A stretch of DNA of 64,000 bases from a virus. A program made the translations under genes and the position numbers. The stretch is taken from the IMG/VR virus record IMGVR_UViG_3300012204_000007, positions 56,831 through 120,830 of that record. One strand, written 5' to 3'. This document shows, one piece after another, positions 1 through 64,000 of the stretch (positions are counted from its first letter, which is position 1; every line of letters starts with the position of its first letter). Below the pieces are notes generated by a model, which ran no database searches, was not told the origin of the DNA, and saw only the letters and a program-made list of their open reading frames with translations.

Positions 1-126
1 GCGCTCATGTCACAGAACAAGTGCGACAGCACGGTGTGGGACATGCTCATGACCCTGTTCGATGCCGACGACCTGGCCCACCTAGTCAAGCAGCGTGACG
101 CATGGTCAAGCGTTAATGACTTCTAA
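1..126 (+). CDS. 3' end of a hypothetical protein entering from outside the window
   Basis: Frame 1 is open from base 1 (ALMSQNKCDSTVWDMLMTLFDADDLAHLVKQRDAWSSVNDF) to TAA at 124-126, followed directly by a terminator. Confidence 0.6.
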   Translation, partial: ALMSQNKCDSTVWDMLMTLFDADDLAHLVKQRDAWSSVNDF

Positions 127-130
127 TCCC

Positions 131-171
131 ACAGGAAGCCCTCAGATTGGCTCTGAGGGCTTCCTGTTTTA
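131..171 (+). terminator. Rho-independent terminator
   Basis: Perfect 16-bp stem ACAGGAAGCCCTCAGA / TCTGAGGGCTTCCTGT with a 5-nt loop, followed by a T run. Confidence 0.9.
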
Positions 172-501
172 TCTGTGGGTACCGACCCCATTGGGACCCC
201 CCGCACGTCTCCTAGGGCCCATTCTGTGCGTCTGAGACGCCTTCCCACGTGCGCACTATCCTGTGCTGCGCATAGCGCTCTCGGGGTAGTATCATACAAG
301 ATAGATATTTTTTAACATTTACAAATATTGATATAATAGTCTAGTCTTTTTGTAGACTTTCAGCGGGACTCCATGTCCATCCCCACCGCTTGTTACACGG
401 GGTATGATGTTTATGAATACCACACGGTGGAGAACCCACTGGGCAGTCCGGTGAATATTTCCAACAAACTTCTATAAGTTCATCGTTGTCATATATACAC
501 A

Positions 502-717
502 TTACTCTTCTACCGGCCCCGGTATAAAAATATCTGGGTTGTTGTGACCCTTGTTCTCATGATGTTCATATAGTTCGTTGGCGGTATCTTCATCAAGATG
601 AGTTAGTATAGCCATACCAATGTCATACAGTCTCATTAGTAGTGCTATTTGAACAAGGTCTTGTTCTGAGGGCTCACTTACTAATACCGGCGGTAGTTCT
701 TCGTTCCAGTCGTTCAC
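502..717 (-). CDS. hypothetical protein
   Basis: 71-aa ORF, last in a chain of overlapping leftward ORFs. Confidence 0.7.
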   Translation of the reverse strand: MNDWNEELPPVLVSEPSEQDLVQIALLMRLYDIGMAILTHLDEDTANELYEHHENKGHNNPDIFIPGPVEE

Positions 718-917
718 TCTTCATCGCTCCATTCAAATGTCATAGTACAATACATTGTAACATCTAAAGTAAATTGGTCTGTCCATGTTGTTTCTGAATC
801 TACGTCAACCGTAGTTAGAACAGCATTTTCAGGTAGTTTTAGTGCATTGAGGGCAGCAATAATCTCTGCCTTACCGCCGCTGCCTACATTTACCTTAACG
901 CTCTTGTGAACCCTCAC
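714..917 (-). CDS. hypothetical protein
   Basis: 67-aa ORF with 4-bp overlaps to both neighbours. Confidence 0.7.
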   Translation of the reverse strand: MRVHKSVKVNVGSGGKAEIIAALNALKLPENAVLTTVDVDSETTWTDQFTLDVTMYCTMTFEWSDEE

Positions 918-2074
918 AGTTCCTCTTTCTTGTAGTTAGAGATTTCCATGCGTGCTGCTTGAGCACTCTCTGGGTGAAGTTTCAAGATATTGACAAACTC
1001 CGCCATAGATGGGAACTTAGGTAGTTTTACTGCTACCGGCTCGTCATATACCCACAAGAACATCTCTTCTATCTGAGAATCTATTGGCGGTAGAAGATGA
1101 ATCTTCTTATCCATCCTACCGGCGCGGATAAGAGCATCGTCTAGGTTCTCAACATGATTTGTTGTCATAAATGTCATGAGGCCGTTAGGAGTTGCTACGC
1201 CATCTAGAGCGTTGAGAAGGCCAGCCAATGTTGGGCCTGGTCCTAAGTCAGAATCTCTAGTCACACTACTAGAGAAGATATCAACATCTTCCAATAGTAG
1301 AATAGAGTTGTCTTCAATTGTATTGATAGCACTCACCAACATATTGTCATCCTTAAGTGCAGCCAGGGAGAGTGAGTATAGACTCATCTTGTACCTATGC
1401 GCAATAGCCGCCACGAGAGAGGACTTACCATTGCCAGGTGGACCATAGAACAGATAGCCTCTGTGCCACGGTGCACCGATTCTTTCGTACTTCTTCTCAT
1501 TCTCAAAAAACCCGCTAATGTCATCTAGCAAAGAGTTTTTTACACCTTTCGGCAGAAAGATAGACTCAATATCGCGGTATGATAATGGAGACTGGCTCCA
1601 ATAACTACTGGTATAGGTAAGGATATTTACCGTCTTGGTCTCCATCTTGCGCGCTTCTGTAAGTTCTTCGAACTTCTCAAGTAGCATTTCGATACCGGCG
1701 CGGGTACGACATTTGAAAATCATCTCACCCTTTGGCTTGTTACCATCGTACGAGTCAATGATAACATTGGTCTCAGGCATCGCTACAGAAATCTTATATT
1801 CGTAACCTCTATAGTTGACCTTAGAAGTACCATTTTGGTTGTAGACCTTGTGCAAGCCTATTGAGTTAGACTCTACGCGAGTATGGTTCGTCTTGGTCTC
1901 ATCGACCAACCAGCGCAGCAGTGCTGGATAGATATACGCAGAGCCATCTACGGTCATTGTATATTGAAACCTCTCTTCGTATCTTGTTTTTAGGTCTCTA
2001 GAGAGAGACCACGCTGTGGTCGCCACACTGAGCGCAGTCGCGGCGGTAGCGAGTTTACTCTTCTTCTTCGTCAT
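914..2074 (-). CDS. BCS1-like AAA+ ATPase
   Basis: PWHRGYLFYGPPGNGKSS (Walker A), LLEDVD (Walker B), TLAGLLNALDG, MTTNH..LDDALIRAGRMD; hydrophobic N-terminus. Confidence 0.85.
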   Translation of the reverse strand: MTKKKSKLATAATALSVATTAWSLSRDLKTRYEERFQYTMTVDGSAYIYPALLRWLVDETKTNHTRVESNSIGLHKVYNQNGTSKVNYRGYEYKISVAMPETNVIIDSYDGNKPKGEMIFKCRTRAGIEMLLEKFEELTEARKMETKTVNILTYTSSYWSQSPLSYRDIESIFLPKGVKNSLLDDISGFFENEKKYERIGAPWHRGYLFYGPPGNGKSSLVAAIAHRYKMSLYSLSLAALKDDNMLVSAINTIEDNSILLLEDVDIFSSSVTRDSDLGPGPTLAGLLNALDGVATPNGLMTFMTTNHVENLDDALIRAGRMDKKIHLLPPIDSQIEEMFLWVYDEPVAVKLPKFPSMAEFVNILKLHPESAQAARMEISNYKKEEL

Positions 2075-2366
2075 CGCCTGTCTCTATCTCCCAAAAGTTT
2101 TCCATACGTAGCAAAGTGCCCCTGTCATCCATAGGGATAAGGTCCAACTTAATGGATGCATTTTCTCTTGTATAGTATGGTCTCGTTAGTACGTCCATCA
2201 TGTCATAATCATAATCTTGACCCAACTCAATCTCTATAATGCCTGTGCGACCACATATTACTCGCTCTCTCTTGTCGTCATCAATCTCGACAAGAAAGAC
2301 CTTGTATTGCTTGGTCTTAATATGCTGCAATCCATTATTCACTAATATTCTCCGAATATGTCTCAA
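2055..2366 (-). CDS. hypothetical protein (true start may be a little downstream)
   Basis: Fills the gap between ThyX and the AAA gene in the leftward operon. Confidence 0.6.
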   Translation of the reverse strand: MRHIRRILVNNGLQHIKTKQYKVFLVEIDDDKRERVICGRTGIIEIELGQDYDYDMMDVLTRPYYTRENASIKLDLIPMDDRGTLLRMENFWEIETGDDEEEE

Positions 2367-3108
2367 AAGCCTCTAATTGGGCAACACGCTTGCGCAGTTG
2401 CTCAAGTTCCTTGGCATCTTCGCGCCAATCGTACTTCTTGTAGGCGGCATATGTCAGGGGCATCTGCTTGGCAAATAACCTCTCGATTTCCTGAGCCACC
2501 ATACGAATTTCATACAGAGCATTAGGGTCATTGCGAAGTGTAAGGAACTGCATCACATTGCGAGGGTTGGCGGTAGCATAGAACTGGGTCATAATACCGA
2601 CCGGTAGCACATCTCTTGCTATCTCGCGTGCAATACCAAGCCCCAGCATCTTTTGATAAGCAAACCAAGACTCAGTATATGCATACCTAGTTTGATTAAA
2701 TACTTGTTTATATTGCTCATTATTACCAGGCTCAAATCGGTACGAACCAACTTTCCCAGTCTGGACTAGTGGTCTATCTGGTGCCGCTACATAGAATCTT
2801 GAGTCTAGTTCCTTATACCGGCCCGAGGTCTCGTTATACGACCATGTGCGGTGGCGCATAAACTCACGCGCCACAAAGATTGGAGTATCTATAAAAAAGG
2901 TGAGCGACCCGTGCTCGAATGGCGACATGTGTCGCTCGCGGTAGAGAAAGTTGATAAGCCCTTCTTGCTTACCAGACTCAGCCAACTTTTGCTGAGCATC
3001 ACTACCAAAGTTACTTACCCATGCCGCACGGCACACATCTTCGTCAGATGCATTGCTCTTTATAAGTTCTACTGTGCTGTTTGATACAAATTTAAGTTTA
3101 GTTGTCAT
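2335..3108 (-). CDS. thyX: flavin-dependent thymidylate synthase
   Basis: HMSPFEH and REFMRHRTWSYNETSGRY (RHRx7SxR motif), plus EIARDVLP and EIR motifs. Confidence 0.95.
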   Translation of the reverse strand: MTTKLKFVSNSTVELIKSNASDEDVCRAAWVSNFGSDAQQKLAESGKQEGLINFLYRERHMSPFEHGSLTFFIDTPIFVAREFMRHRTWSYNETSGRYKELDSRFYVAAPDRPLVQTGKVGSYRFEPGNNEQYKQVFNQTRYAYTESWFAYQKMLGLGIAREIARDVLPVGIMTQFYATANPRNVMQFLTLRNDPNALYEIRMVAQEIERLFAKQMPLTYAAYKKYDWREDAKELEQLRKRVAQLEAFETYSENISE

Positions 3109-3346
3109 TATTCCTTAGGTTTTCTACTATCTCGCCAATATTGGCTCTAATCTGGTCCCATGTATATATACTAATACCAAATACAGTTCGGCATGCAAAG
3201 CATTTGAGTTCTGGTTCTGAGTGCTGTCCGACTACGGGGACAAGTTCGCTCTGACAGTCTGGACATACTATCACGGGAGCATCGCCATTGGCTACCGCTG
3301 AGCGGTAGACATGAATTGCAGGCCATTTGTCTTCGTCCCTCACCAA
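3098..3346 (-). CDS. small zinc-ribbon protein
   Basis: CPDC...CFAC cysteine pairs. Confidence 0.7.
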   Translation of the reverse strand: MVRDEDKWPAIHVYRSAVANGDAPVIVCPDCQSELVPVVGQHSEPELKCFACRTVFGISIYTWDQIRANIGEIVENLRNNDN

Positions 3347-3549
3347 TAACCTCTTTTAATACGCTTACTAGACTTGAAATGGTACCATCGGATGGGAAAG
3401 AAATCCATCTCACCGTCAATGTTATTAGTCTTGCATATGTGCCATCTACCGCAATCAGAACATGGTATGAGAGTTCCTTTGACATAGTGTGATGGATGAC
3501 CATACATTCTGCATATATGCTTTTCCGAAGGTCCTATGATATCTCTCAT
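3340..3549 (-). CDS. hypothetical Cys/His-rich protein
   Basis: 69-aa ORF containing CSDCGRWHIC; overlaps its neighbours. Confidence 0.6.
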   Translation of the reverse strand: MRDIIGPSEKHICRMYGHPSHYVKGTLIPCSDCGRWHICKTNNIDGEMDFFPIRWYHFKSSKRIKRGYW

Positions 3550-3641
3550 AATTTAACCATAACTTCCATAAATATTAGAAAGATGCAAATGCCTACAAGC
3601 GATAATAATATTATCGCTGGCCAACTCCATCGTGTTCTCAT
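3546..3641 (-). CDS. small membrane peptide (not in ORF track)
   Basis: MRTRWSWPAIILLSLVGICIFLIFMEVMVKL, one hydrophobic helix; ATGA overlaps at both ends. Confidence 0.55.
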   Translation of the reverse strand: MRTRWSWPAIILLSLVGICIFLIFMEVMVKL

Positions 3642-3769
3642 CTTCGCCACTCTATCATCCACCATCTGTGACCAAACCATATTTCTACACTTCTATGAAA
3701 CCTGAAAACCCTAAACCAACCGTTATGATGGCTCTGTGGATACTTAAACCAAGCGGTATCAATCTTCAT
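3638..3769 (-). CDS. small Trp-rich hypothetical protein (not in ORF track)
   Basis: MKIDTAWFKYPQSHHNGWFRVFRFHRSVEIWFGHRWWMIEWRR; coupled to its neighbours. Confidence 0.5.
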   Translation of the reverse strand: MKIDTAWFKYPQSHHNGWFRVFRFHRSVEIWFGHRWWMIEWRR

Positions 3770-3935
3770 TAGGAAGCCTTTCAAGGAAATGGGTACCGGC
3801 TCCATCCTTCATCCATACATAGGACTTACCAAAGAGTTCGGTACGAAATAGAAACTTACATCCAGCATCAATTAGTAGTTGCAGATATGCTAACTGTGCT
3901 TCATCCAACTGCTCATTTATCTGATTACTCATCAT
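3759..3935 (-). CDS. small hypothetical protein (not in ORF track)
   Basis: MMSNQINEQLDEAQLAYLQLLIDAGCKFLFRTELFGKSYVWMKDGAGTHFLERLPNED; ATGA overlap with the upstream ORF. Confidence 0.6.
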   Translation of the reverse strand: MMSNQINEQLDEAQLAYLQLLIDAGCKFLFRTELFGKSYVWMKDGAGTHFLERLPNED

Positions 3936-4129
3936 GCACCATAGTTGTGTGGTGCGAAGTTCTTGTGGGGGGTAGTGGGACAGGTCTCATGAGTGAATGT
4001 TGCACCATCGTAGCGATGAACTAGACTGCCCTTTCGAATATATACGTTGCATTTGTAACAATACATTGCAAACGGAGCCGCGATTGTGGTGAAAGTGCTA
4101 TCTACGAGCGCCTGCTCTGCGAGAGTCAT
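3932..4129 (-). CDS. small CxxC...HxxC zinc-binding protein
   Basis: CYKC...HETC; upstream AAGGAAG SD-like sequence on the minus strand. Confidence 0.7.
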   Translation of the reverse strand: MTLAEQALVDSTFTTIAAPFAMYCYKCNVYIRKGSLVHRYDGATFTHETCPTTPHKNFAPHNYGA

Positions 4130-4167
4130 TGTCTTCCTTTCGGTAGGTGATGAACAACGGTACCATA

Positions 4168-4386
4168 CTAGAATGGGGGTGTCAACTCTTCTGTACTAAG
4201 GATTTCCTTGCCGGGCGTGGGGTGTCTATCACGGCTTGCACGGAGTTCATCATAACACTTCACATGTGCAAGATGTGAACCTTGCTTCTTGGTGCAGTCA
4301 AAGTAGACCAAAGTGCTGTGTGGGAACTCTTTTTTGCAGATTGCACACATTCCCGCTCTTATTGTTAATCCTGTCCATGCTGGCAA
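4168..4386 (-). CDS. small CxxC...HxxC zinc-binding protein
   Basis: CAIC...HVKC, the same pattern as the adjacent gene. Confidence 0.65.
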   Translation of the reverse strand: MPAWTGLTIRAGMCAICKKEFPHSTLVYFDCTKKQGSHLAHVKCYDELRASRDRHPTPGKEILSTEELTPPF

Positions 4387-4540
4387 AAGAAAATCCCCTA
4401 ATAACCCCTTAAGAAAAGTATTACTTCAAAGAAGTAATACTAGAACTTGTTTTATATTATATTAATATAATATGTAACTCTTAGTTACACTCTTGTTAGT
4501 ATACTTGTATTGGTGTTCTTCCTTAGGACCAATTATACAC

Positions 4541-15025: not shown

Positions 15026-15059
15026 CTACCGGCGGCTATCCTAGGATAGCCGCCGGTAG
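15026..15059. terminator. perfect 34-bp palindrome after the capsid gene (probable terminator)
   Basis: CTACCGGCGGCTATCCT AGGATAGCCGCCGGTAG. Confidence 0.8.
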
Positions 15060-43795: not shown

Positions 43796-44136
43796 TGGCG
43801 ACTCCCAAACAGGCTCACGCTCTTGTGTCTTACTTTGGGAAGAAGTATAAAGAGAAATACGGTTCAGACCCGAAGTCTAATCGCTATGCGGCCCGTTGGG
43901 GTTTTGACTCGATTCTTATGGATATCAATGAGTCAGAAATTAAAGACTTGATTGATTATTATTTTGAGACGATAGGCACCAATGGCCACACTCTCGACTG
44001 GTTCTTCTACAATTATGAGAAGTTAGTGGTAGCCAAAGAAAAAAGAGATGAAGACGTTGCTGCATTAGCGCGTATACGCGAGAAGACTCGTATTCGCACC
44101 GAGATGTGGAGGGCAAAACAGAATGATAACAACTGA
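43795..44136 (+). CDS. hypothetical protein (possible helicase partner)
   Basis: Coupled directly upstream of DnaB. Confidence 0.65.
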   Translation: MATPKQAHALVSYFGKKYKEKYGSDPKSNRYAARWGFDSILMDINESEIKDLIDYYFETIGTNGHTLDWFFYNYEKLVVAKEKRDEDVAALARIREKTRIRTEMWRAKQNDNN

Positions 44137-45413: not shown

Positions 45414-45707
45414 ATGATGCATAAAGATATTAAGCGCTTCGGCTTGACAGGACAGATTACATCTGATACATTCCTGTCAACAAGGGAAACGCTTATCAAG
45501 GAAGTAGAGGACGGCATGCGGGACGAAGGGTTCGTCCCGGTGCTGGACCTGATTCCACAATTTACTAGGGTGTACGACAATACCACAGAAACGTTCTCCT
45601 TTGAACTATCCATATATGGAATACATGTAGGAGAAGATAAAGCATGGCAAGTCGCCGGAATGATGAATGGAATTCTACAAGAGAGGTCTACTCGCCCGCA
45701 GAGGTAG
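45414..45707 (+). CDS. hypothetical protein
   Basis: 97-aa ORF after a TGATATAAT promoter. Confidence 0.7.
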   Translation: MMHKDIKRFGLTGQITSDTFLSTRETLIKEVEDGMRDEGFVPVLDLIPQFTRVYDNTTETFSFELSIYGIHVGEDKAWQVAGMMNGILQERSTRPQR

Positions 45708-46783
45708 AAGCCGTACTCAGAGCATTAAATATTGATGTGCGTGACGAGACAGAGAACGACTTCCTGTCATTCTGTCCATATCACGGCAACACAGATTCAC
45801 CAGCGTTCAGCACGTCCAAGCGACATGGATATTCTATCTGTTTTAATCCAGCCTGCGCAATCGGTACGGAGTACCGACTAACTTTAGAACGTCTTACTAA
45901 AGACCTAAAAGGTCTTGACAATATTAGTGCAAAGAGATTTGTTATACGCACCAAGGGAGAGTCTGGTGAGTCATTCCATAACAAGTTTGATTCTATCAAA
46001 CAAGAGGAAGTAGAACTAAAAGAATTTCCACATGCAGCCATCGACAAGATGCACGAGAGATTCATGGAGGCCCAAGATGCATTGAATTATATGAAAGGTC
46101 GTGGTTTCGAGTTAGACACTATGGAACATTTCAATGTGGGATTCACTCCTGCGTCAACCGCATACGGAGCAAATATATACCGCCCACATGATATGATTGT
46201 GGTACCAGCATACGACCATAAGTCCCGCCCGGTAGGATTAGTTGGCAGGAGTCTAGTAGGCAAAGAGTTTAAGAACTATGGAGCAGAGCCAAACGGTACC
46301 GGATTCCATAAGTCAAAAATTATCTGGAATCTACAGAATGCCCGTCGGTATGAAACCATAATCATAACAGAAGCAACCTTTGACTCTATGGCTATACATC
46401 AAGCAGGCTATCCTAATACCGGCGCGTTGCTCGGGGGTAGTCTAAGTACATATCAAAAAGACCTGTTGAATAGACACTTTAGTCATGTTATCATTATGAC
46501 TGACAATGAGAATAAAGGCAATGGAGAAATGACCTTCCCCGTTCGCTGCTCTAAGTGTTTGAAGCAGGGTTTTGATATGTGTCAAGGACACGCGCCAGGT
46601 AGAGAACTTGGTATGAAGATAGCACAAGAATTACCCAGAATGCGTATATCATGGGCTAATTATGATGACAAAGATATATATGCTAGGAACGTGAAAGATG
46701 CAAGAGCGATGACAGATGATGAGATTCGACAAAGCCTACGCAATGTTATCTCTCACTATGAATACATGGACTTGCTTGCTTAA
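45644..46783 (+). CDS. dnaG: DNA primase (zinc finger plus TOPRIM)
   Basis: CPYH..TDSPAF...C....C; TEATFD; MTDNE; KDA. Confidence 0.88.
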   Translation: MASRRNDEWNSTREVYSPAEVEAVLRALNIDVRDETENDFLSFCPYHGNTDSPAFSTSKRHGYSICFNPACAIGTEYRLTLERLTKDLKGLDNISAKRFVIRTKGESGESFHNKFDSIKQEEVELKEFPHAAIDKMHERFMEAQDALNYMKGRGFELDTMEHFNVGFTPASTAYGANIYRPHDMIVVPAYDHKSRPVGLVGRSLVGKEFKNYGAEPNGTGFHKSKIIWNLQNARRYETIIITEATFDSMAIHQAGYPNTGALLGGSLSTYQKDLLNRHFSHVIIMTDNENKGNGEMTFPVRCSKCLKQGFDMCQGHAPGRELGMKIAQELPRMRISWANYDDKDIYARNVKDARAMTDDEIRQSLRNVISHYEYMDLLA

Positions 46784-47978: not shown

Positions 47979-50900
47979 ATGCAATATTGTGAACTTCACT
48001 TGCACGACCACTATTCTGCTCTTGATGGTTTGAATACACCAGCAGAATATATGGTTAGAGCAAAAGAACTTGGTATGTCGCATCTTGCGCAGACCAACCA
48101 CGGTACACTGAGCGGCCACCGCGACTTCCAGGGCGCTGCTGCCGAAGCCGGTATTACACCCATTCTAGGCGTTGAGGCTTATATCTCCGCTACCGACCGT
48201 TTTGACCGACGCTCTAATAATAAGCGCGAAGACGGCACATCTACATTCAACCATATTGGTCTATTGGCTATGAATGGCAATGGACTTAAGAATATGAACA
48301 TTATGATGCGTGAGGCGTGGACCTCTGGCTTTTATTCTAAGCCACGTATCGATATGGACCTACTTGAAGAGTATAACGAGGATATCATTGTACTATCTGG
48401 TTGTCTTGGTGGGCTGCTTGCCTCGGCACTCACAACTGAAAATGACAATGTGCCAGACTACGACCGCGCGCTCAAGACAGCGACTCACTTGAAGAGCATT
48501 ATGGGAGACCGCTTCTTTATCGAGGTTCAGGGTCACAATCCTAAGTATATCAACGACGGACTGTACCGTTTGGCTGAAGAAACTAATACGCTACCGGTAA
48601 TTACTTCTGACTGTCACTATGCCAGAAAAGAAGACCTATGGATTGAAAACGCAATGCTTATCCTTTCTACTAAACCAAAGGTAAAGAGCGGGTTTGACTT
48701 CTCAAAATCACAGACTATGGACTACTTGGAGCGATTCAACTATCTATATCCAGATAGGAAGATGAACTTCGAGAAGATTGAAATTTATCTTCGTTCTGCT
48801 GCGGAGCAGATGGCAATGCTGGAAGCACAGTCGCGCGGTACAGAGGCTATTGCTAACACCAACGTAGTAGCAGAGATGATTGGTAACTATCCATATTACG
48901 AGGCTCTCGACCTACTGCCATCACCAGATGCAAGTATCAAGGATTTGGATGCCGAGTTGAGGCGTCTATCGATGAAGGGCTTAGCCGAGCGCGGCCTTGC
49001 TGATAATCCAGAATATATAGAGCGTCTTAAGCATGAGTTAGAGATTATCAAGAACAAGGGCTTCGCAGTATATTTTCTTATTCTAGCCGATGTTGTAAAC
49101 TGGGCTAGAGAACAGGGAATCTTCATTGGTCCCGGCAGAGGCTCTGGCGTATCATCTTTGGTGAACTACTCTCTGTTCATTACCAATATTGACCCAATTC
49201 CATACAAGTTGCTGTTCTTCCGGTTCCTTGACCCAGAGCGTGACGACTGGCCTGATATTGATGTTGACTTTGAAGTCAAGCGCCGGTATGAAGTCAAGGA
49301 ATATGTAAGCCGTAAGTATGGATATACTGCTAACATTATGACGTTCAACTACTTCCGTGGTAAAAGTGCTATTAAGGCCGCAGCCTCTGCATTCAAGATT
49401 CCTACTGGTGAAGTAAATCGCGCTACGAAGGGCCTAACAGAAGACCCAGATTTTCCTGTACTGGATATCTATGCGACTAGTGAGGGCACAGCAGAGTTCC
49501 GTAAGAAGTATCCAGAGGTTCTTGAGTTGGCACGCGCACTAGAGGGTCGTATCAAGGGCACAGGCATGCATGCTGGTGGCACTGTAATTAGCAAGGTGCC
49601 TATCGAGGACTATGTGCCGATGGAAACCAGAGTGGACCCTAGCGACGAAGCAAAGGGTCGTGTGCCCGTCGTCGCGGTAGACATGAACGAGGCAGCCGAC
49701 ATCGGGCTTATTAAGTATGACTTTCTTGGACTTAACAACCTGACAGTTATCTTGGAAACCATCGAAACGGTATATGAGAGAACCGGTAAAAAGATTGACC
49801 CATATGTGGACTTTGCTGGATTAGATGACCCAAAGGTATATGAGATGTTATCTCAAGGACACACCAAGGGTATATTCCAGTGTGAAGGTGGACCTTATAC
49901 CAATACCATTCTAGCAATGGGTGGCGTGTGGAACTTCGAAGACCTAGTTTCTTCTAACGCCCTGGTCCGACCCGGCGCCGCCGATTCAAGTGTTGGTGAG
50001 AATTATATGAAAGGTAAGAAGACTGGTAACTTCGACTATATCCATGCCGACACAAAGTACTTTACGGAAGAGACATTCGGACAGATTCTGTTTCAGGAGC
50101 AGCAGATGTTGTTGTGTACTGAACTTGCTGGTATATCAATGGGTGACGCCAACAAGGTGCGTAAGGCTATCTCTAAGAAGATTCTAAAGGATTTGCAGAT
50201 ATGGAAGCCAGCCTTTATCGAGGGAGCAAGCAAGAAGATTAGTGAGCGTAAGGCAGAGGCTGTGTGGGACGACCTAGAGAAGTCAGCAGCCTATGCGTTC
50301 AACCGCGCTCACTCTGTTGGATATTCTATGATTTCATATTGGACTGCATGGTTCAAGGTAAACTATCCGGTAGAATATATGTGTGCCCTTATGAATAACT
50401 TGTCTGGTACAGATGTAAAGGTCAAGGCTATGTTTGCATTGATGGAAGCAAAGAGACTAGGCGTACAGGTTAGACTACCACATGTCAATGCATCTGATAT
50501 CAATAATCGCGTGGAAGATGGCGCTATCCGAATGGGTCTGTCCTCTATTAAGTATATCAGCGGCAAGGTCGGTAACAAGATTATTGACAATGGCCCTTAC
50601 CCTTCATATGAAAGACTGTTAGAAATAAGCCAGACAAAGGGCTCCGGTATTAACTCTAGGGCTATCGACGCTATGAATAAGATAGGAGCGGCGGCTTTCG
50701 AGGATAATCCACGTACCGGCGATGAGCGTTCTAACTTTTATGAATATCTCAATATCCCTGCATTCGAGTCTAAAGACTTGGACCCACACGTTAAGTTGCA
50801 ATTCCGCAACCTAACAGAGTATACTGAGGATGAGGCATTCGTGGTATGCGCCATGGTTTATAATATCAAGGTAGGTCACGGCTGGGCTCTGGTTGAGATG

Positions 50901-51305
50901 GTGGATGAGTCTGGCAGCGCCGGTAGTTTTGCAAGTCAAAATATTCCCATTGAAAAGGGCAAGATGTATGTCATGCTCATTAGTAATAATCGCATCGCCA
51001 GGTACATTACTACAGATGACATTTTGAACGGCCAAGGTGGGTCTTTTGGTAAGTATCTTGAAAAAGAGACGCTTGACCTAAAAGATGGAGAATATCGTTG
51101 TATCTCTTTCAACACCAGGCATACGAAAAAGGGCGAGAAGATGGGCGAGGCTATATTCACAGATGCAGATAAGAATTTGACTTCTGCGATGGTCTTCGCA
51201 TCTATGATTGACAAAGCAATGATTCCATGTGCTACCGCAGCAAAGGTCAAGGTGCAGTTTGCAGAGACTCGTGGCGGCGCATACTGGGTAAAGGATATTA
51301 AATGA
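47979..51305 (+). CDS. dnaE: DNA polymerase III alpha subunit
   Basis: LHLHDHYSALDG, TNHG, GPGRGS, PDIDVDF, HAGG, KYDFLGL, YAFNRAHS. Confidence 0.96.
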   Translation: MQYCELHLHDHYSALDGLNTPAEYMVRAKELGMSHLAQTNHGTLSGHRDFQGAAAEAGITPILGVEAYISATDRFDRRSNNKREDGTSTFNHIGLLAMNGNGLKNMNIMMREAWTSGFYSKPRIDMDLLEEYNEDIIVLSGCLGGLLASALTTENDNVPDYDRALKTATHLKSIMGDRFFIEVQGHNPKYINDGLYRLAEETNTLPVITSDCHYARKEDLWIENAMLILSTKPKVKSGFDFSKSQTMDYLERFNYLYPDRKMNFEKIEIYLRSAAEQMAMLEAQSRGTEAIANTNVVAEMIGNYPYYEALDLLPSPDASIKDLDAELRRLSMKGLAERGLADNPEYIERLKHELEIIKNKGFAVYFLILADVVNWAREQGIFIGPGRGSGVSSLVNYSLFITNIDPIPYKLLFFRFLDPERDDWPDIDVDFEVKRRYEVKEYVSRKYGYTANIMTFNYFRGKSAIKAAASAFKIPTGEVNRATKGLTEDPDFPVLDIYATSEGTAEFRKKYPEVLELARALEGRIKGTGMHAGGTVISKVPIEDYVPMETRVDPSDEAKGRVPVVAVDMNEAADIGLIKYDFLGLNNLTVILETIETVYERTGKKIDPYVDFAGLDDPKVYEMLSQGHTKGIFQCEGGPYTNTILAMGGVWNFEDLVSSNALVRPGAADSSVGENYMKGKKTGNFDYIHADTKYFTEETFGQILFQEQQMLLCTELAGISMGDANKVRKAISKKILKDLQIWKPAFIEGASKKISERKAEAVWDDLEKSAAYAFNRAHSVGYSMISYWTAWFKVNYPVEYMCALMNNLSGTDVKVKAMFALMEAKRLGVQVRLPHVNASDINNRVEDGAIRMGLSSIKYISGKVGNKIIDNGPYPSYERLLEISQTKGSGINSRAIDAMNKIGAAAFEDNPRTGDERSNFYEYLNIPAFESKDLDPHVKLQFRNLTEYTEDEAFVVCAMVYNIKVGHGWALVEMVDESGSAGSFASQNIPIEKGKMYVMLISNNRIARYITTDDILNGQGGSFGKYLEKETLDLKDGEYRCISFNTRHTKKGEKMGEAIFTDADKNLTSAMVFASMIDKAMIPCATAAKVKVQFAETRGGAYWVKDIK

Positions 51306-51827: not shown

Positions 51828-51864
51828 ACGGCCGGTAGCAATACCGGCCGTTCTGTGGTATAAT
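51828..51864 (+). terminator. hairpin (probable terminator) abutting the recA promoter
   Basis: ACGGCCGGTA-GCAA-TACCGGCCGT, then TGGTATAAT. Confidence 0.7.
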
Positions 51865-51887: not shown

Positions 51888-52886
51888 ATGACTGATAATA
51901 TTGATGAGTTGCTAGCCAAATTGAATCCAAAGACAGCAGCAATGTTTCGCAGGGCTTCCGAAGTTAAGATTGAAACTCTCGCAACCCCAAGCCTAGGACT
52001 AAATAGAGCCATTGGTGGAATAGGTTACGGACGACAGACAACGCTTTGGGGCAACCGTTCAGGCGGTAAGACATTGATGGCGCTTGGGTTGGCAGCAAAT
52101 GCGCAGCGAGCCGGTAAGTCAGTGGCTTGGATTGATGCAGAAAGAAACTTTGACCCAGCATGGGCCACAAGACATAACGTTAATCCAGAGCAAATGTTAA
52201 TATCTCCAATTACTTCTATTGCAGATATGGCTGATGCAGGACACGATTTCATCAGGGCTGGTATCGATGTATTGGTCGTAGACTCTATCTCAGTATTACT
52301 TCCACAGTCGTACTTTGTAGATGGTGAGATGAAGGGTCTAGCCGATACCGGCCAGATTGGTACATTCTCTAAGAATATGGGAACTGCGGTAAACATGCTT
52401 AACAGCATTAACGAGCATACCGCCCTCATCTTAATCTCTCAGGTACGTAACCAGATTGGTTCATATGGCGCAAGCCTAACTCCTATGGGTGGTAAGGCTG
52501 TCGAGCACATGAACTCAACCACAATAAAACTATGGAGCAACCCTTCCGAGAAAGAAGCCATCAAGGGTAAGGTTACCGAAGGTGACCTTATCTTCGAGAA
52601 GCCTGTAGGACGCCCTGTGGTGTGGACTGTAGAAAAGAACAGAGGCCCCGGTATGAATGAGTCCAACAGATACGACATGTATTTTAAGGGCGACTTTGTG
52701 GGCGTTGACCGTGTCGGTGAGATAATTGACTTCGGTGTAGAGATGGGCATAGTTAAGAAGGGTGGCGCATGGTATACCATTGGAGACGAGCGCTTCCAAG
52801 GCAGAATCAAGGCGGTAGAATATCTACGCAGCAACCCAGATATTGAAGAAAAGATTTACGGAGAGATTCTTGCCAAATCCATTTAG
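51888..52886 (+). CDS. recA: RecA-like recombinase
   Basis: GNRSGGKT, WIDAE, VVDSI, ISQVR, GGKA, KKGGAWY. Confidence 0.93.
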   Translation: MTDNIDELLAKLNPKTAAMFRRASEVKIETLATPSLGLNRAIGGIGYGRQTTLWGNRSGGKTLMALGLAANAQRAGKSVAWIDAERNFDPAWATRHNVNPEQMLISPITSIADMADAGHDFIRAGIDVLVVDSISVLLPQSYFVDGEMKGLADTGQIGTFSKNMGTAVNMLNSINEHTALILISQVRNQIGSYGASLTPMGGKAVEHMNSTTIKLWSNPSEKEAIKGKVTEGDLIFEKPVGRPVVWTVEKNRGPGMNESNRYDMYFKGDFVGVDRVGEIIDFGVEMGIVKKGGAWYTIGDERFQGRIKAVEYLRSNPDIEEKIYGEILAKSI

Positions 52887-53079
52887 TAAGAAGAATAAAG
52901 CGGCTACTCCAAGCAACGATGATAGTAATGAGCCCATTGCGATATCCAATAGCACACTTGTATGTGAGTACTGTTTCTTTGTATCATCAGAAGGTACCTA
53001 TTATCCAGAAAAAGAATGGTTGATTTGGGACTGTGATGCATGTGGTTTTACAAACATTGTAAAGAATATTGAATTATGA
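52870..53079 (+). CDS. zinc-ribbon protein
   Basis: CEYC...CDAC. Confidence 0.65.
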   Translation: MPNPFSKKNKAATPSNDDSNEPIAISNSTLVCEYCFFVSSEGTYYPEKEWLIWDCDACGFTNIVKNIEL

Positions 53080-53393
53080 GCGAGGCAAACGAGGTTAAAC
53101 GCGACGGTGCCAGGGCTCAGAAGAACTCAGGTCGTGGTAATTACCAAAAGGGTGACGCTATCCTTGATATATTTACGGTTGATTATAAAGAGTATGAGAA
53201 ATCATTCTCAATCAGTAAAGATGTATGGGCTAAAATATGTACCGATGCAATACGCAACGGCCATACCGAGCCCACCATCAAAGTAATACTTGGCTCCGGT
53301 AACTCAAAGACACGCTTATGGATTGTAGCAGAGCATATTATTGAAGATTATATTAGACTTAGAAAAGCAGAGGAAGATGCACTACAGGATTAA
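53076..53393 (+). CDS. PD-(D/E)xK nuclease, Holliday-junction-resolvase-like
   Basis: E......NSGRG..KGDA.....VDYKE. Confidence 0.7.
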   Translation: MSEANEVKRDGARAQKNSGRGNYQKGDAILDIFTVDYKEYEKSFSISKDVWAKICTDAIRNGHTEPTIKVILGSGNSKTRLWIVAEHIIEDYIRLRKAEEDALQD

Positions 53394-53909: not shown

Positions 53910-54005
53910 ATGTGTGGAAATTGTAATCGCGCGATGGGCCAGATGAAAGATGATATTGAAAGCATTAAAAGAATGATTACTTATTTGGAGGATAGCATTG
54001 CGTGA
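53910..54005 (+). pseudogene. C-terminal remnant of an endonuclease VII-type nuclease
   Basis: MCGNCNRAMGQMKDDIESIKRMITYLE matches the CxxCNxxxG...DD....R...YL tail; the N-terminal portion is missing. Confidence 0.6.
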
Positions 54006-54786
54006 AATAGTAGATTTACAGAAGCCCACATTGGCATCGAAGAGATTCGATGCGCAAAGGCTAGCAGACTTGATTAACGACGCATATCTAAAGGGTAGGC
54101 GCGAGCCGAGCGACAGAGCAAAGAAGTCATTTGCACCGTCTGGGCTTGGCTATGGAAGTGGTACATGCCCTCGCCAATGGTTCTATGCATTTACTGGTGG
54201 TGTAATGCGCGAGGAAAATACAGACGCCGTAGGCGTTGCCGGTATGGCATATGGTACTGAGGCCCATGCTAGGATTCAGAAGGTATTCAGAGATACAGGT
54301 ATCTTGGTTGAGGAAGAGCGAAAGGTTGTTACCGACGACCAGCCAGATATGCCACCTATTTTTGGATATGCAGACCTCATTATTAAATGGCAGGGAGAAG
54401 AGGCGGTAGGAGAAATCAAAACTACCACCACTGAGTCCTATGTCTCTAAGAAGGCTAAGTCTACCCCAGCAGGATACCATTTGATACAACTCTTGATTTA
54501 TATGAAAGTCCTTGGATTGAACAAGGGCTTTTTCTTATATGAAAATAAGAACACTCAACAATTGCTTATTATGCCTGTCACATGGAACGTCGATAACAAG
54601 AAATTAGTTGAAGACACATTTGATTGGATGAATAAGGTATATGCAAACTGGCAAGAGGGAACTCTGCCTCAACGGCCTTTCAAGTCTGAGAAGTCAGTAG
54701 TATGCAAAACATGCCCATTCAAGAAGCATTGTTGGGAGGACGAAGAGGGCGCGGTAATGCTCCCGGTCTTGGAAGTACCAAAGTGA
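53998..54786 (+). CDS. Cas4-like PD-(D/E)xK exonuclease
   Basis: CPRQ, GTEAH, GYAD...GEIKT, QLLIY, CKTCPFKKHC (four Cys). Confidence 0.85.
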   Translation: MREIVDLQKPTLASKRFDAQRLADLINDAYLKGRREPSDRAKKSFAPSGLGYGSGTCPRQWFYAFTGGVMREENTDAVGVAGMAYGTEAHARIQKVFRDTGILVEEERKVVTDDQPDMPPIFGYADLIIKWQGEEAVGEIKTTTTESYVSKKAKSTPAGYHLIQLLIYMKVLGLNKGFFLYENKNTQQLLIMPVTWNVDNKKLVEDTFDWMNKVYANWQEGTLPQRPFKSEKSVVCKTCPFKKHCWEDEEGAVMLPVLEVPK

Positions 54787-55130: not shown

Positions 55131-55703
55131 ATGAACTTTACTGAACTTACCAAACGCAAAGCAGGTCGTGTAATTGGTATAGACTGTTCTACACACAGTT
55201 TAGCCTTCGCTATCTTTGATGATAGTAAACCTGCAACTTGTGGAGAGGTATTCTTTACTGGCTCTAATATCTACGAAAGATTGAACGACGCCAGGTTGAA
55301 AACACAGATGCTTGTAGACAATGGAGTTCTCGTTGGTGACTATGTTGGCATGGAAGCCGCCATTGCAGGCAAATCTAGCCAGGTTACCATTAAACTTAGT
55401 TACGTCTTCGGCGCGGTATTGTCTGTTTTGATGCAGAACAAAATGGAAGTATCTACCGTCGCTCCTATAACATGGCAGTCTTATATAGGGAATCCTAATC
55501 TTAAGAAAGATGAAAAAGAGCAGTTGCGCACGAATAGTCCGGGTCATAAAGACTCATGGTACCAGAACGAGGGACGTAAGATGCGAAAGCAGCGCACGTT
55601 GGAATTCGCTAGAAAGTACTTCAAAATTGAATCAGGTTCTGACAATGTTGGCGATGCTGTTGGAATTGCTTTTTACACTAATGAGCAGTTGACGAGGCGG
55701 TAG
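55131..55703 (+). CDS. RuvC-like resolvase
   Basis: VIGIDCST, GMEAA, PITWQ, DNVGDAVGI. Confidence 0.85.
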   Translation: MNFTELTKRKAGRVIGIDCSTHSLAFAIFDDSKPATCGEVFFTGSNIYERLNDARLKTQMLVDNGVLVGDYVGMEAAIAGKSSQVTIKLSYVFGAVLSVLMQNKMEVSTVAPITWQSYIGNPNLKKDEKEQLRTNSPGHKDSWYQNEGRKMRKQRTLEFARKYFKIESGSDNVGDAVGIAFYTNEQLTRR

Positions 55704-60321: not shown

Positions 60322-60328
60322 TTGAAAC

Positions 60329-60942: not shown

Positions 60943-61490
60943 GTTTATTACCGGTAGAACAAGTGCGTTATGAAGAGATGAACGCTGTTGTAGAACTTTA
61001 TATTCAAAACATTAACCCTACGAAGATTGCCAGGCAACTAGGCATTCGTAGGGTTGACGTACTTAATCATATAGATGAATGGAAGGCGACGGCGGTAGGC
61101 TCAGAAGCGATGAAGGACCGTGTTGATGAACTCATAAGCACAATGGATGAACATTACTCAATGCTTATTCAGAAGGCTTATGAGATTATCGAAGAGGTTG
61201 ATGACCTAAAAGGCTCTAAAGAGACGATGACTCGCTCTCAGATGCTTTCTCAGAAGAAGGGCGCTATCGACCTAATTGCTAAGTTGGAAAAAGACCGTAT
61301 AGATATCCTACAGAAGTCTGGATTGCTAGACGCCGCAGATGTTGGCGACCAGTTGGTTGAGATGGAAGATAAGTATGACCGTGTTATGAATCTTCTAGAA
61401 GAGCATCTATGTAGCGCATGTACCGCAAAGATTCTTGGTCCTTTGCAACAAGAAATGTCCGGTAACGTAGTGGTTGTTCATGGCGAATGA
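60939..61490 (+). CDS. HTH protein, probable terminase small subunit
   Basis: N-terminal NPTKIARQLGIRRVDV HTH; directly upstream of the large terminase. Confidence 0.6.
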   Translation: MSLLPVEQVRYEEMNAVVELYIQNINPTKIARQLGIRRVDVLNHIDEWKATAVGSEAMKDRVDELISTMDEHYSMLIQKAYEIIEEVDDLKGSKETMTRSQMLSQKKGAIDLIAKLEKDRIDILQKSGLLDAADVGDQLVEMEDKYDRVMNLLEEHLCSACTAKILGPLQQEMSGNVVVVHGE

Positions 61491-63354
61491 TTTTGCACGT
61501 AGGCTTTTTAAGAAACTGTCAGGGGATGTATTCGATGAAGATATGGTCGATGAGTCTACCGGAAAGCCTGTAGACCTTAAAACATTTGTTACCTCACCGG
61601 ACTTTCTTAACCTAAAAGGTCTCAGCGACCCACAGTATTCTCTAGCAAATGCTATGACTCAGATTTACCGCAAAGAAACCCTACTTGCACTTTATGATGG
61701 CGATGAGGCGGCAGCAGAAAAGCGCTGGCGTCACACTTGTAAAGAAATCATCATGCAGATTGGTAAGGGCGGCGGTAAGGACTTTACGTCGACAATCGCT
61801 GTGGCCTATGTTGTGTATCTTCTGCTTTGTCTTAAAGACCCTGCTGAATATTATGGCAAGGGCAGCGGTGACTCTATCGATATTATTAACATTGCTATCA
61901 ACGCAGACCAGGCACAACGAGTATTCTTCGAGAACTTCATGAACAAGATTGAAAAGTGTAAGTGGTTTGAAGGTAAGTATGTCGACAAGGCCGGTAGCGT
62001 CAAGTTTGATAAGAACATTAATGTCTATTCTGGTCACTCTGAGAGAGAGGCGTTTGAGGGATATAACACCTTGATGGTAATACTCGATGAGATTGCCGGT
62101 TTCGCAGAGGCACCGGATGATGCTGAGGAAGGCGACGAACTACAAAAGACTTCTAGGGCTATCTATAAGATGTATCGCGCTTCGGTTTCATCGCGTTTTC
62201 CAGATTTTGGTAAATTGGTTCTTCTGTCATTTCCTAGACACGAGGATGACTTTATTCAAAAGAAGTATAACGATGTCATTGCTGAGAAGGAAACGGAGAT
62301 TATTACACAGCGCTTGAAGCGCGATGCTGATTTGCCAGATGGCACGCCCGGTAATGAAATTGATGTAACTTATGAAGTAGACCATATCATCAAATACTCA
62401 CGTCCTAGAGTATTCGCATTGAGGCTACCATCGTGGCTGATGAATCCAGCACGTACTATAGAAGACCTTACAGATGACTTCTTTGATGATTTAGGTGACG
62501 CACTTGGGCGTTTCGCATGTATGCCAAGTAATGTTACACGAGGCTTCTTCCGTAATATGGAGGCAGCAGAGAATGCGTTCTCTAGGTTGAACGGCGTTGA
62601 TGGCGACGGTATCTTTCACCCTCAGTTCACACCAAAAGCAGATACAACGTACTTTATTCATGTTGACCTAGCCCAGAAGCATGATAAGTGTGCGGTAGCA
62701 ATGGGCCATGTTGAGAAATGGATTTCTTATAAAATTCCCGCTAGTGAACTAGTTGAATATCTACCATTAGTTGTTGTAGACGCTATCAGATGGTGGACAC
62801 CTACCAAACAAAAGACTGTTGACTTCTCATCTGTAGTAGAGTATATTAAGGCCGTTCGTCGTAGAGGGTTTGATATCAAACTTGTCACCTTCGACCGTTG
62901 GAACTCACACGACACTATGATGGACCTAGAACGAAATGGTATGAAGACAGACCTTCTGTCGGTAGCAAAGAAGCACTACGACGACTGGCTTGTAACGATG
63001 TATGACGGTAGACTTTTTGGTCCACACGAAGAGACTTTGTTAAAAGAGATGAGAGAACTTCGTGAGAAAAAGGGAAAGGTTGACCATCCGAGAAAAGGTA
63101 ACAAGGATTTGGCTGATGCTGTATGCGGTGCTATTTATAATGCAGTTGCTAATACTCCCAAACAAGAATCTCTCATGGCAGATGCGCTCACATTGGCTGA
63201 TTTGAAAAAACAAGTCAGAGAGTTGGACAAGGAAGAGCGAGAAGAAAAAGCAAAATGGGACCGCCCAAATGTGACAGTTGTTCCAAAGGCCAAACTTGCT
63301 GAGGCTCCGCAACACGTACAGGACATGGTTGCAGAACTCATGCGTATCATCTGA
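61480..63354 (+). CDS. terminase large subunit
   Basis: QIGKGGGKD Walker A, VILDE Walker B, HVDLA..HD, FDRWNS, VDHP..GNKDLADA. Confidence 0.92.
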   Translation: MANDFARRLFKKLSGDVFDEDMVDESTGKPVDLKTFVTSPDFLNLKGLSDPQYSLANAMTQIYRKETLLALYDGDEAAAEKRWRHTCKEIIMQIGKGGGKDFTSTIAVAYVVYLLLCLKDPAEYYGKGSGDSIDIINIAINADQAQRVFFENFMNKIEKCKWFEGKYVDKAGSVKFDKNINVYSGHSEREAFEGYNTLMVILDEIAGFAEAPDDAEEGDELQKTSRAIYKMYRASVSSRFPDFGKLVLLSFPRHEDDFIQKKYNDVIAEKETEIITQRLKRDADLPDGTPGNEIDVTYEVDHIIKYSRPRVFALRLPSWLMNPARTIEDLTDDFFDDLGDALGRFACMPSNVTRGFFRNMEAAENAFSRLNGVDGDGIFHPQFTPKADTTYFIHVDLAQKHDKCAVAMGHVEKWISYKIPASELVEYLPLVVVDAIRWWTPTKQKTVDFSSVVEYIKAVRRRGFDIKLVTFDRWNSHDTMMDLERNGMKTDLLSVAKKHYDDWLVTMYDGRLFGPHEETLLKEMRELREKKGKVDHPRKGNKDLADAVCGAIYNAVANTPKQESLMADALTLADLKKQVRELDKEEREEKAKWDRPNVTVVPKAKLAEAPQHVQDMVAELMRII

Positions 63355-63383
63355 TTGACACCCGGCCGGTAGGATGGTAGAAT
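63355..63383 (+). promoter_or_regulatory. sigma70 promoter
   Basis: TTGACA-17-TAGAAT with GGCCGGTAGG in the spacer. Confidence 0.85.
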
Positions 63384-63403
63384 GAAGACGAAAGGAGGCA
63401 GTA

Positions 63404-63997
63404 ATGACAGAACTAATCTCAGAAGAAAGTCAGAGCGATAGAGCGGAGGCAGAACGCCACCACAGACCGTCGCGCTCCGAACTTGTGCTCGTGCTTATTG
63501 ATAGAGATGGTGATGAATGTCGCTACTGTCAACGAGACTTCTCCAAGCGAGAGCGCACCATAGACCACGTATATCCACAAAGTCGAGGCAAGGCTGATGG
63601 CTGGACATACGAAGAAATTTGGCATATTGACAATCTAGTTTTGAGTTGTAAGCCTTGTAATGCCAAAAAGTCAGACCTTCTTCTAGATGAAGATGGTAAT
63701 ATTCCTAATAGGAACACTCGCACGTTTCGGTACCGTCGCGACAAGAGGGCTCAACGTGCAGAGATATGCACTTCGTGTAATGTTGGCCGCGACCTTGGAC
63801 CAGACGAGGTCTGTGCGGGATGTGGTTCTGGTCCTATGCCTGAGCGGTGGCCGAGGTGGGCAAAGGTCAAAAGCACCGAGTGCCTACATGATGGTGTATT
63901 TTGGTGCTGGGCTTGTGCTATCGGAATTGTAGAAATACGCGGCGCGACCGAAACTATTTTTTATGGAGTCGAAGGTGAAGAAGAAGGATTGCTATAA
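63404..63997 (+). CDS. HNH endonuclease with Cys-rich C-terminus
   Basis: RDGDECRYC...TIDHVYPQS....NLVLSCKPCNAKK. Confidence 0.85.
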   Translation: MTELISEESQSDRAEAERHHRPSRSELVLVLIDRDGDECRYCQRDFSKRERTIDHVYPQSRGKADGWTYEEIWHIDNLVLSCKPCNAKKSDLLLDEDGNIPNRNTRTFRYRRDKRAQRAEICTSCNVGRDLGPDEVCAGCGSGPMPERWPRWAKVKSTECLHDGVFWCWACAIGIVEIRGATETIFYGVEGEEEGLL

Positions 63998-64000
63998 ATG

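Follow-up and report, generated by a model that had tools for sequence, protein, structure and literature searches.

Short Words in Phage and Bacterial Genomes

The primase of phage T7 reads 5′-(G/T)GGTC-3′ on its template and that of T4 reads 5′-GTT-3′; both give primers that begin pppAC... and leave the 3′ base of the site uncopied. The stoperators of cluster A mycobacteriophages are asymmetric, phage-specific, dispersed words of 13-14 bp that point along transcription and are recognized by a protein of the phage; there are about 25-35 of them per genome, mostly intergenic. The DNA uptake sequences (DUS) and uptake signal sequences (USS) of Neisseriaceae and Pasteurellaceae occur at very high density in every frame and on either strand, form inverted-pair hairpins, exist as lineage dialects, and turn over while their density is kept. 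HIP1 (GCGATCGC), a chromosomal palindrome of cyanobacteria, is described in the available text of PMC5861425 as a hyper-abundant short word that is frame-independent and kept by selection, its function being unknown. For phages LLS and P1, the available text of PMC12315714 gives Chi as the most frequent octamer, at one copy per 1.9 kb, with 20 of the 23 LLS copies in one orientation. Here, the word (G/C)(G/C)CGGTA (hereafter SSCGGTA) was analyzed in the right 64 kb (64,000 nt; "the window") of the 120,830-bp record IMGVR_UViG_3300012204_000007 (C1:56831-120830). The gene order and proteins of this phage match those of the large low-GC Streptomyces siphophages (Stanwilliamsviridae), of which it is an uncultured soil relative.

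The word is thought, with a probability of roughly 0.65, to be a selected cis-signal that is read by a phage-encoded factor, because it is independent of reading frame, is kept over deep divergence, is inherited with the phage as dialects, is biased toward the + and sense strands, and is evenly spaced on the + strand. An initial annotation of the window, made by eye, had proposed a selected cis-signal, and the word behaves as one, most simply as one read by a phage protein. It shares with DUS and USS all of the properties listed above, but resides in a phage rather than a competent bacterium, is 7 nt long, and is strand-biased, with evenly spaced copies on one of the strands. It resembles HIP1 in being a hyper-abundant, frame-independent short word kept by selection, whereas it is asymmetric and strand-biased (GCCGGTA occurs 123 times on the + strand of the whole genome and 47 times on the - strand, as TACCGGC). 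Like the stoperators, it is an asymmetric, dispersed word with an orientation and, apparently, a phage-encoded reader; unlike them, it has a core of 5-7 bp and hundreds of copies, mostly in genes. No paper describing the word was found in a literature search that did not cover supplementary files. Matches to GCCGGTA or TACCGGC came from unrelated papers only, the literature on 'Stanwilliamsviridae' includes none on motifs by title or abstract, and the Ankus/Naboo preprint does not contain 'motif', 'restriction', 'modification' or 'methyl'.

Abundance of the Word and Codon-Aware Tests

GCCGGTA is the most frequent 7-mer of the window, with 53 copies on the + strand and 18 on the - strand, compared to a zero-order expectation of 3.0 per strand. 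The by-eye estimates of about 50 copies and about 3 expected were thus accurate, and all 14 example positions and all seven leftward TACCGGC positions were recovered. GGCGGTA (43 on +, 16 on -) and CGCGGTA (23 and 3), which had also been called frequent, are so, as is GCCGGTAG (20 and 6). The core CGGTA, with 211 copies on + and 113 on -, is the top 5-mer by maximal-order Markov z-score (211 vs. 124.7 expected in the window, z = 11.6; 389 vs. 238 in the genome), and CGGTA and TACCG together number 621 in the genome. Immediately 5′ of the core, both positions are mostly G or C, and the 3′ neighbor is weakly G or T in this phage.

The contribution of codon usage was assessed with two null models applied to 146 genes of the whole genome, 56 of them in the window, which were called by our own crude scoring of open reading frames (ORFs) and are uncurated. 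The first null shuffles synonymous codons (100 shuffles), and the second, with 30 shuffles, additionally preserves all dinucleotides. With this second null, 36.0 copies of SSCGGTA are expected on the sense strand of the genes and 188 were found (z = 28.6), and CGGTA was enriched in each of the three frames ([14, 118, 177] vs. [4.8, 27.4, 81.0]). In the window genes (40 shuffles), SSCGGTA occurs 112 times in sense (22.6 expected) and 36 times in antisense (14.8 expected), and GCCGGTA 51 times, compared to 8.7 expected and a shuffle maximum of 13. The disappearance of the enrichment under a codon-pair- or dinucleotide-preserving null had been named beforehand as refuting the proposed signal; since the enrichment survives both nulls used here, the word is no codon or dinucleotide artefact. 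The claim that the word occurs in three frames holds for the enrichment in each frame, and the copies at 49282 and 58701 do lie in frame xGC CGG TAx; the third example, at 40574, lies outside the gene calls. The word also occurs in promoter spacers and hairpin stems.

The specificity is sharp. CGGTA is enriched 2.7-fold in sense and 1.6-fold in antisense, and all 15 of its single-base variants reach at most 1.1-fold; similarly, GCCGGTA is enriched 6.7-fold, and GCCGGTC, GCCGGTG, and GCCGGTT only 0.7-1.2-fold. Of the synonymously possible GCCGGTA sites, 93 of 201 (46%) are filled in sense and 29 of 179 in antisense. An origin of the word as a by-product of site avoidance was considered and rejected, as the neighbors of CGGTA lose too little and T before GGTA shows no rise. 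Avoidance of GATC, AGCT, and Shine-Dalgarno-like words does create compensating words, e.g., GAACT.

Word avoidance is extensive in this phage. Across the genome, GATC occurs 0 times and AGCT once (about 463 expected each), and hardly any copies remain of many 6-bp palindromes (CTCGAG 0, GCCGGC 0, CTGCAG 1, CCGCGG 1, GACGTC 1, AGGCCT 2, ACGCGT 2, TCGCGA 3). Coding sequence is also poor in Shine-Dalgarno-like and other asymmetric words (GAGGAG 3 vs. 36, AGGAG 54 vs. 120, CTGAAG 2 vs. 36). Relatives avoid overlapping but differing palindrome sets: among the IMG/VR relatives described below, GATC is retained in G002, and CCGG is avoided by G003 and G004 (4 and 27 vs. about 145 expected). The avoidance of GATC, AGCT, and many 6-bp palindromes argues that the DNA is not generally protected, and so bears on the idea that the word is the target of a phage sequence-specific DNA modification, its density being selected to shield the DNA. 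The word is non-palindromic and present on both strands, and the phage encodes several glycosyltransferases and a T4-gp1-type deoxynucleoside monophosphate (dNMP) kinase, which would suit a modification target. However, the kinase is found in BK-cluster phages too, and no DNA methyltransferase or base-modifying enzyme was detected among about 90 proteins of this genome scanned against Pfam, many small ORFs being unscanned; we regard a modification target as very unlikely.

Relatives and Dialects

Four of the 45 IMG/VR loci retrieved with the portal protein are rich in CGGTA. Whole contigs of four IMG/VR relatives were compared with the present genome (G000) and with the cultured phage Coruscant. 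GCCGGTA occurs 94 times on + and 43 times on - in G001 (114.8 kb), 81 and 32 times in G002 (126 kb), 13 and 5 times in Coruscant, and not at all on either strand of G003 and G004. In 21 shared core genes, CGGTA occupancy is 0.25 in G000, 0.29 in G001, and 0.21 in G002, compared with 0.02 in G003, 0.016 in G004, and 0.073 in Coruscant. A tree of 14 concatenated core proteins places G000, G001, and G002 together on one side of a 100/100 branch, and one origin of the word therefore suffices. G002 is very distant (branch 0.78) and yet word-dense, so the density must be actively maintained. As to the synonymous-site conservation that had been proposed as a test, density is kept in G001 and G002, but individual sites are weakly conserved and turn over, with 33 of 71 kept at the same residue in G001 and 7 of 21 in G002. 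An IMG/VR scan with a 14-mer of two word copies identified, among the 80 of 118 stretches listed, only the contig of G001 itself as word-rich; two contigs of 70% G+C reach about 2-fold, and the scan is uninformative on other phage families.

The cultured Streptomyces phages carry related words. An earlier conclusion that they lack the motif, drawn from zero-order and Markov tests on CGGTA, was withdrawn when the codon-aware null revealed these words on the sense strand: GGCCGGT(A) in cluster BE, GGCGGGT(A) in cluster BK, and GSCCGGTG in Coruscant, the equivalents of GCCGGTA being GGCCGGTA in BE and GGCGGGTA in BK. In Coruscant, GGCCGGT occurs 29 times (4 expected), and GCCGGTG 29 times in sense (5.8 expected) and twice in antisense (2.6 expected). 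Jay2Jay has GGCCGGT (13 vs. 2) and GCCGGTA (12 vs. 1.8), Naboo CCCGGTG (9 vs. 1), BillNye GGCGGGT (17 vs. 3), and Ankus CGGCGGG (10 vs. 1). No enrichment was seen on the antisense strand of the cultured relatives.

The dialects follow the phage cluster, not the host species. CGGCCGG, GGCCGGT, and GCCGGTA are common to BE phages from three hosts, including NootNoot (S. griseus) and LilMartin (S. viridochromogenes). In cluster BK, CGGCGGG and GGCGGGT are common to Blueeyedbeauty, from S. griseus, and BillNye, from S. viridochromogenes, e.g., 18 and 17 sense copies vs. 1 and 3 under the null. Thus, on S. griseus, NootNoot uses GGCCGGT/CGGCCGG and Blueeyedbeauty GGCGGGT/CGGCGGG, and the same split separates LilMartin from BillNye on S. 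viridochromogenes. Because BE and BK phages on the same host species differ in their word, the reader appears to be linked to the phage.

The sense-only enrichment of the cultured relatives, together with the fact that 28 of the 29 Coruscant GCCGGTG copies lie in frame GCC GGT G, is what would be expected of a signal at the level of RNA or translation, for instance a preference for certain codon pairs, or a motif in the mRNA to which a protein or RNase binds. Against such a signal, all three frames are enriched in G000, as they are for the degenerate Coruscant word GSCCGGTG ([37, 10, 16] vs. [6.9, 0.5, 3.6]), and CGG, which makes up 4% of Arg codons in G000, is nonetheless followed by TA in 14 of 64 cases. 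In addition, the antisense strand, the promoter spacers, and both hairpin arms are enriched in the word-rich clade, which leaves an RNA-level signal highly improbable.

Strand Polarity and Spacing

In the rightward blocks of the genome, the word is in 2-4:1 excess on the + strand, and pooling the rightward genes of the three word-rich genomes gives an enrichment of 2.50-fold in sense and 1.47-fold in antisense. In Jay2Jay, GCCGGTR flips at the divergent junction: the leftward block has 2 copies on the + strand and 8 on the - strand, the rightward block 14 and 2. The + strand copies are also more evenly spaced than expected. Gaps between SSCGGTA copies on this strand have means of 460-660 nt and coefficients of variation (CV) of 0.82, 0.83, and 0.74 in the three word-rich genomes, compared to 0.99 +/- 0.06 for uniform placement; when synonymous opportunities were thinned at random, the simulated value was as low as the observed one, or lower, in a fraction of 0.054, 0.004, and 0.0003 of the simulations. 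The same tests revealed no even spacing of the - strand copies in the three genomes, and all CGGTA/TACCG sites taken together are near Poisson (CV 0.94-0.97). No helical phasing at 10-11 bp was found, and, by bins, the copies are not clustered toward the genome ends.

A word without function, spread by molecular drive or by a context-specific mutation or repair bias akin to uptake-sequence drive or very-short-patch repair, would explain the high occupancy wherever the sequence is free, the turnover of sites, and the lineage-specific character of the trait. It would not predict even spacing on one strand or sense-only enrichment in relatives. Moreover, no single neighbor word is strongly depleted, the donors being spread over positions 1-4, and the genes examined include no repair enzyme that only the word-rich genomes have; neutral drive is accordingly considered quite improbable.

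The Host and Chi

The initial annotation had suggested that the word might be a Chi-like signal of the host and had pointed to a 6/8 identity to E. coli Chi; this identity carries no weight. GCCGGTA does not exceed its reversed control in 293 of 301 Actinomycetes genomes, as read from the table of these genomes, the phage's own host not being identified, and the eight exceptions reach 1.1-2.8-fold. The strongest look-alike (G250, 2.8-fold) was rejected as ordinary, with a CGGTA Markov z-score of 2.0 in 200 kb. A host Chi is thus not supported, because the Actinomycetes show no comparable enrichment, the dialects are bound to phage clusters, and the phage has a recombination module of its own.

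A broader possibility is a Chi-like word that attenuates or redirects a helicase-nuclease (host AdnAB/RecBCD or a phage-encoded enzyme) on linear or concatemeric phage DNA. The word has the attributes of Chi in the Chi-rich phages LLS and P1, as the available text of PMC12315714 presents them: it is short, is the most frequent k-mer (here a heptamer), is strand-biased and specific to the single base, and is apparently under selection; even spacing on one strand would fit a protective checkpoint. Its density of about one GCCGGTA per 0.7 kb differs from that of Chi in these two phages (one per 1.9 kb). Unlike Chi, it is not enriched in genomes of the host class, and it varies by phage cluster on the same host. 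By the rule taken from PMC12315714, Chi-rich phages would lack a recombination module of their own, and, as far as the available text of that paper goes, lambdoid phages with their own recombination genes mostly lack Chi, whereas the present phage encodes RecA-like and Cas4-like proteins and two resolvases (Table 1). The absence of clustering toward the ends, and of a RecBCD- or AddAB-like gene among about 90 proteins scanned against Pfam, adds to the case against a Chi-like role, which we judge improbable.

A Primase as Candidate Reader

We tentatively suggest, at odds well short of even, that the reader is the phage DnaG-type primase and that the word marks its start sites. This enzyme is the leading candidate by analogy, as the ...GGT+purine shape and the GC-rich 5′ flank recall the sites of the T7 and T4 primases. 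In the proposed mechanism, SSCGGTA would be a cis-acting DNA word, selected wherever proteins and RNAs tolerate it, and would represent the form taken in this clade by a GC-rich ...GGT(A/G) word that occurs throughout the large low-GC siphophages of the Streptomyces type. A phage-encoded enzyme would read the word on one strand; the template 5′-SSCGGTA-3′ would give the GC-rich primer pppACCGSS, with the 3′ A left uncopied. For a primase demanding 7 nt, chance would supply about 3-6 sites per strand, which would be too few, and the genome would therefore have been seeded with the word to one site per about 0.5 kb, evenly, on the + strand. The fuller evolutionary proposal, in which a DnaG-type primase evolved a template specificity of 7-8 nt, the word was seeded about 0.5 kb apart, and each clade co-evolved its own dialect, is more doubtful.

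The zinc-binding domain required of such a primase appears to be present, as the N-terminus of the protein contains the zinc-ribbon-like motif CPYH...CFNPAC ahead of its DnaG_N and Toprim domains, and the homologues in Coruscant, BillNye, NootNoot, and other phages carry the annotation DNA primase. Primase, DnaB helicase, and DnaE polymerase genes are found in the window (Table 1) and across the phage family. The spacing of the + strand copies is at the scale of Okazaki fragments and more regular than chance. Start sites of a primase would be expected on the template of the lagging strand; the observations here are a + strand excess in rightward blocks, a flip in Jay2Jay, and no clear bias in the leftward genes of this clade. 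The resemblance to the sites of T7 gp4 (which include 5′-GTGTC-3′) and T4 gp61 would thus extend to a short template word on one strand ending in ...GGT+N, a primer start pppACC, a DnaG/Toprim primase with a zinc-ribbon-like N-terminus, and Okazaki-scale spacing. The sites differ in that the word has 7 nt here compared to 3-5 nt, is enriched 5-7-fold compared to at most 1.3-fold in T7, and is enriched on both strands.

A number of observations weigh against a one-strand reader, and against a primase in particular. To our knowledge, DnaG-type primases read 3 nt (5 in T7), and a 7-nt requirement would be unprecedented. In a T7 control, the primase pentamers were barely enriched (TGGTC 64 vs. 50.3, GTGTC 31 vs. 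22.7, GGGTC 29 vs. 27.8). Both strands are enriched in the word-rich phage, with 77 antisense SSCGGTA copies in the genes of the genome compared to 23.9 under the second null (z = 10.1). The polarity follows neither transcription nor genome strand cleanly, because in leftward genes of the three word-rich genomes both orientations are about equal (2.19-fold in sense and 2.57-fold in antisense, from 45 and 53 sites). The coding-strand polarity claimed initially is therefore only partly borne out: it is seen at window positions 1-4500 (Table 1) and fails in the other leftward block, at 47.9-54.2 kb of the genome (outside the window), where the word does not flip with the coding strand. Inverted pairs TACCG-N4-CGGTA occur 19 times over the three genomes, compared to about 2.4 expected, some of them in promoter spacers, and such close pairs look like the site of a dimeric double-stranded DNA (dsDNA)-binding protein. 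The antisense enrichment and palindromic pairs of this clade would fit a dsDNA-binding protein better than a primase. Finally, comparison of gene content (tblastn of 587 G000 ORFs against five genomes) revealed no gene confined to the word-rich genomes from which the reader could be named. That search left two very small ORFs and four recognizable proteins, namely a CCA-adding enzyme, the dNMP kinase, an HNH endonuclease, and an Lsr2-like protein; the kinase, the endonuclease, and the Lsr2-like protein were rejected as private, as they occur in BK phages too.

The main competing explanation is that the word is the half-site of a phage sequence-specific dsDNA-binding protein of the regulator or nucleoid type, with full sites of the form TACCG-N2-6-CGGTA (candidate TACCGGCCCCGGTA) and lone half-sites that would mark or coat the phage DNA across the genome. 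In favor of such a protein, both orientations are enriched, with CGGTA filling 0.22 of the possible sites in sense and 0.20 in antisense. Inverted pairs summed over spacers of k = 1-6 are in excess in G000 (16 vs. 4.5) and G001 (32, or 31 by a second tally, vs. 7.2), and the overlapping palindrome CGGTACCG is frequent; the GC-rich center of the palindromes may, however, stem in part from the preference of every copy for an SS flank. The word is present in 7 of 32 promoter-like spacers of G000, 9 of 34 of G001, and 4 of 35 of G002; the corresponding figures are 1 of 37 for Coruscant and 1 of 16 for G004. Several results are difficult to reconcile with a half-site: the cultured relatives are enriched on the sense strand only, spacing is even on the + strand only and shows no 10-11 bp phasing, most copies lie within genes, and none of the candidate binding proteins is restricted to the word-rich genomes. 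A half-site is therefore regarded as unlikely, and a cis-signal read by a phage-encoded enzyme, for which the primase is the candidate, is preferred.

Genomic Setting and Other Features

IMG/VR lists the record as linear and about 94% complete; its G+C content is 46%. Protein identity to BE- and BK-cluster phages and to Coruscant is about 60% for the portal protein, 52% for DnaE, and 60% for the class II ribonucleotide reductase (RNR). Glycosyltransferase, RNR, portal, protease, and capsid genes were identified; the tape measure and terminase labels are taken only from synteny with the Coruscant annotation, and a Pfam scan of the terminase-sized ORF gave no family. The features of the window are collected in Table 1.

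Table 1. Positions of the word field, word-bearing elements, and predicted replication and recombination genes in the window.
Feature	Position	Strand	Remark
Field of the word (G/C)(G/C)CGGTA	1..64000	both	
Leftward block (AAA ATPase, ThyX, small ORFs)	1..4500	-	Heptamer on - strand only: 7 TACCGGC, 0 GCCGGTA
Perfect hairpin, arms start and finish with the word	15027..15058	both	TACCGGC at 15027, GCCGGTA at 15052
Promoter-like TTGACA-N17-TATAAT	39442..39470	+	GCCGGTA (39451) in spacer
DnaB-like replicative helicase	44123..45376	+	DnaB_C domain; expected primase partner
DnaG-type primase	45644..46783	+	DnaG_N catalytic core and Toprim domain
DnaE-like DNA polymerase III alpha	47979..51305	+	
Hairpin GGCCGGTA-GCAA-TACCGGCC	51830..51849	both	Both stem arms consist of the word
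RecA/UvsX-like recombinase	51888..52886	+	Phage recombination module
Holliday-junction resolvase	53076..53393	+	phrog_2002
PD-(D/E)XK / Cas4-like exonuclease	53998..54786	+	Recombination module
RuvC-like Holliday-junction resolvase	55131..55703	+	
Promoter-like TTGACA-N17-TAGAAT	63355..63383	+	GCCGGTA (63365) in spacer

About 30 promoter-like sites of the form TTGACA-N17-TA(G/T)RRT were found in G000, often with GTG just before the -10 element. Four of these sites, at G000 positions 11030, 17223, 24150, and 30477 in the left arm (outside the window), have a common AGTACTTGTTGG-like box behind them. The acceptor stem of one tRNA-Thr is formed by the word, and the 34 tRNA genes show no clear word excess. 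These genes belong to an extensive group of RNA-repair and tRNA genes that lies outside the window, in the left arm (G000 230-30049). The group includes two RNA ligase families, parts of polynucleotide kinase (PNK) phosphatase and kinase, RlaP, cREC_REC, and a CCA-adding enzyme, together with a Macro domain and a weak Acb1-like match. Two neighboring Lsr2-like DNA-binding proteins are encoded on the - strand at G000 48699-49121 and 49267-49635 (outside the window); one has a Cys-rich C-terminal half, and the BK and BE homologues are annotated as Lsr2-like DNA bridging protein.

Within the window, an AAA+ ATPase with a RuvB-like P-loop (914-2074, - strand) has a tblastn match in none of the five compared relatives. 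The ORF at 60421-60942 (+) has a weak match to LAGLIDADG endonucleases and a tblastn match in Coruscant, with none in G001-G004. Directly downstream of it are the ORF at 60939-61490, for which the Coruscant annotation gives a putative sigma factor at the equivalent position, and the terminase-sized ORF (so named by synteny). Five sugar-handling ORFs are located at 4609-5544 and 55836-58948 (+); two were confirmed, as a 'conflict-system' GT4 and an NAD-dependent epimerase, and the other three are transferases by the label of the initial annotation alone. Their targets may be virion proteins or DNA.

Implications for the Phage Family

If the co-evolution of primase and word were true, it would be a genome-wide co-evolution of an enzyme and its cis-sites of a kind that is undescribed for any replication system. 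More generally, if a phage replication or recombination enzyme reads the word, the word would provide a sequence-only handle on how these phages, which are abundant in soil, copy an AT-rich genome in a host of 72% G+C. A phage enzyme as reader would also mean that a phage can reshape a quarter to half of its synonymous opportunities for a single DNA word, which bears on the interpretation of codon usage. The presence of cluster dialects in tractable phages (Jay2Jay and NootNoot in BE, BillNye and Blueeyedbeauty in BK, and Coruscant) makes the question directly testable, and the dialects might serve as lineage markers in soil viromes.

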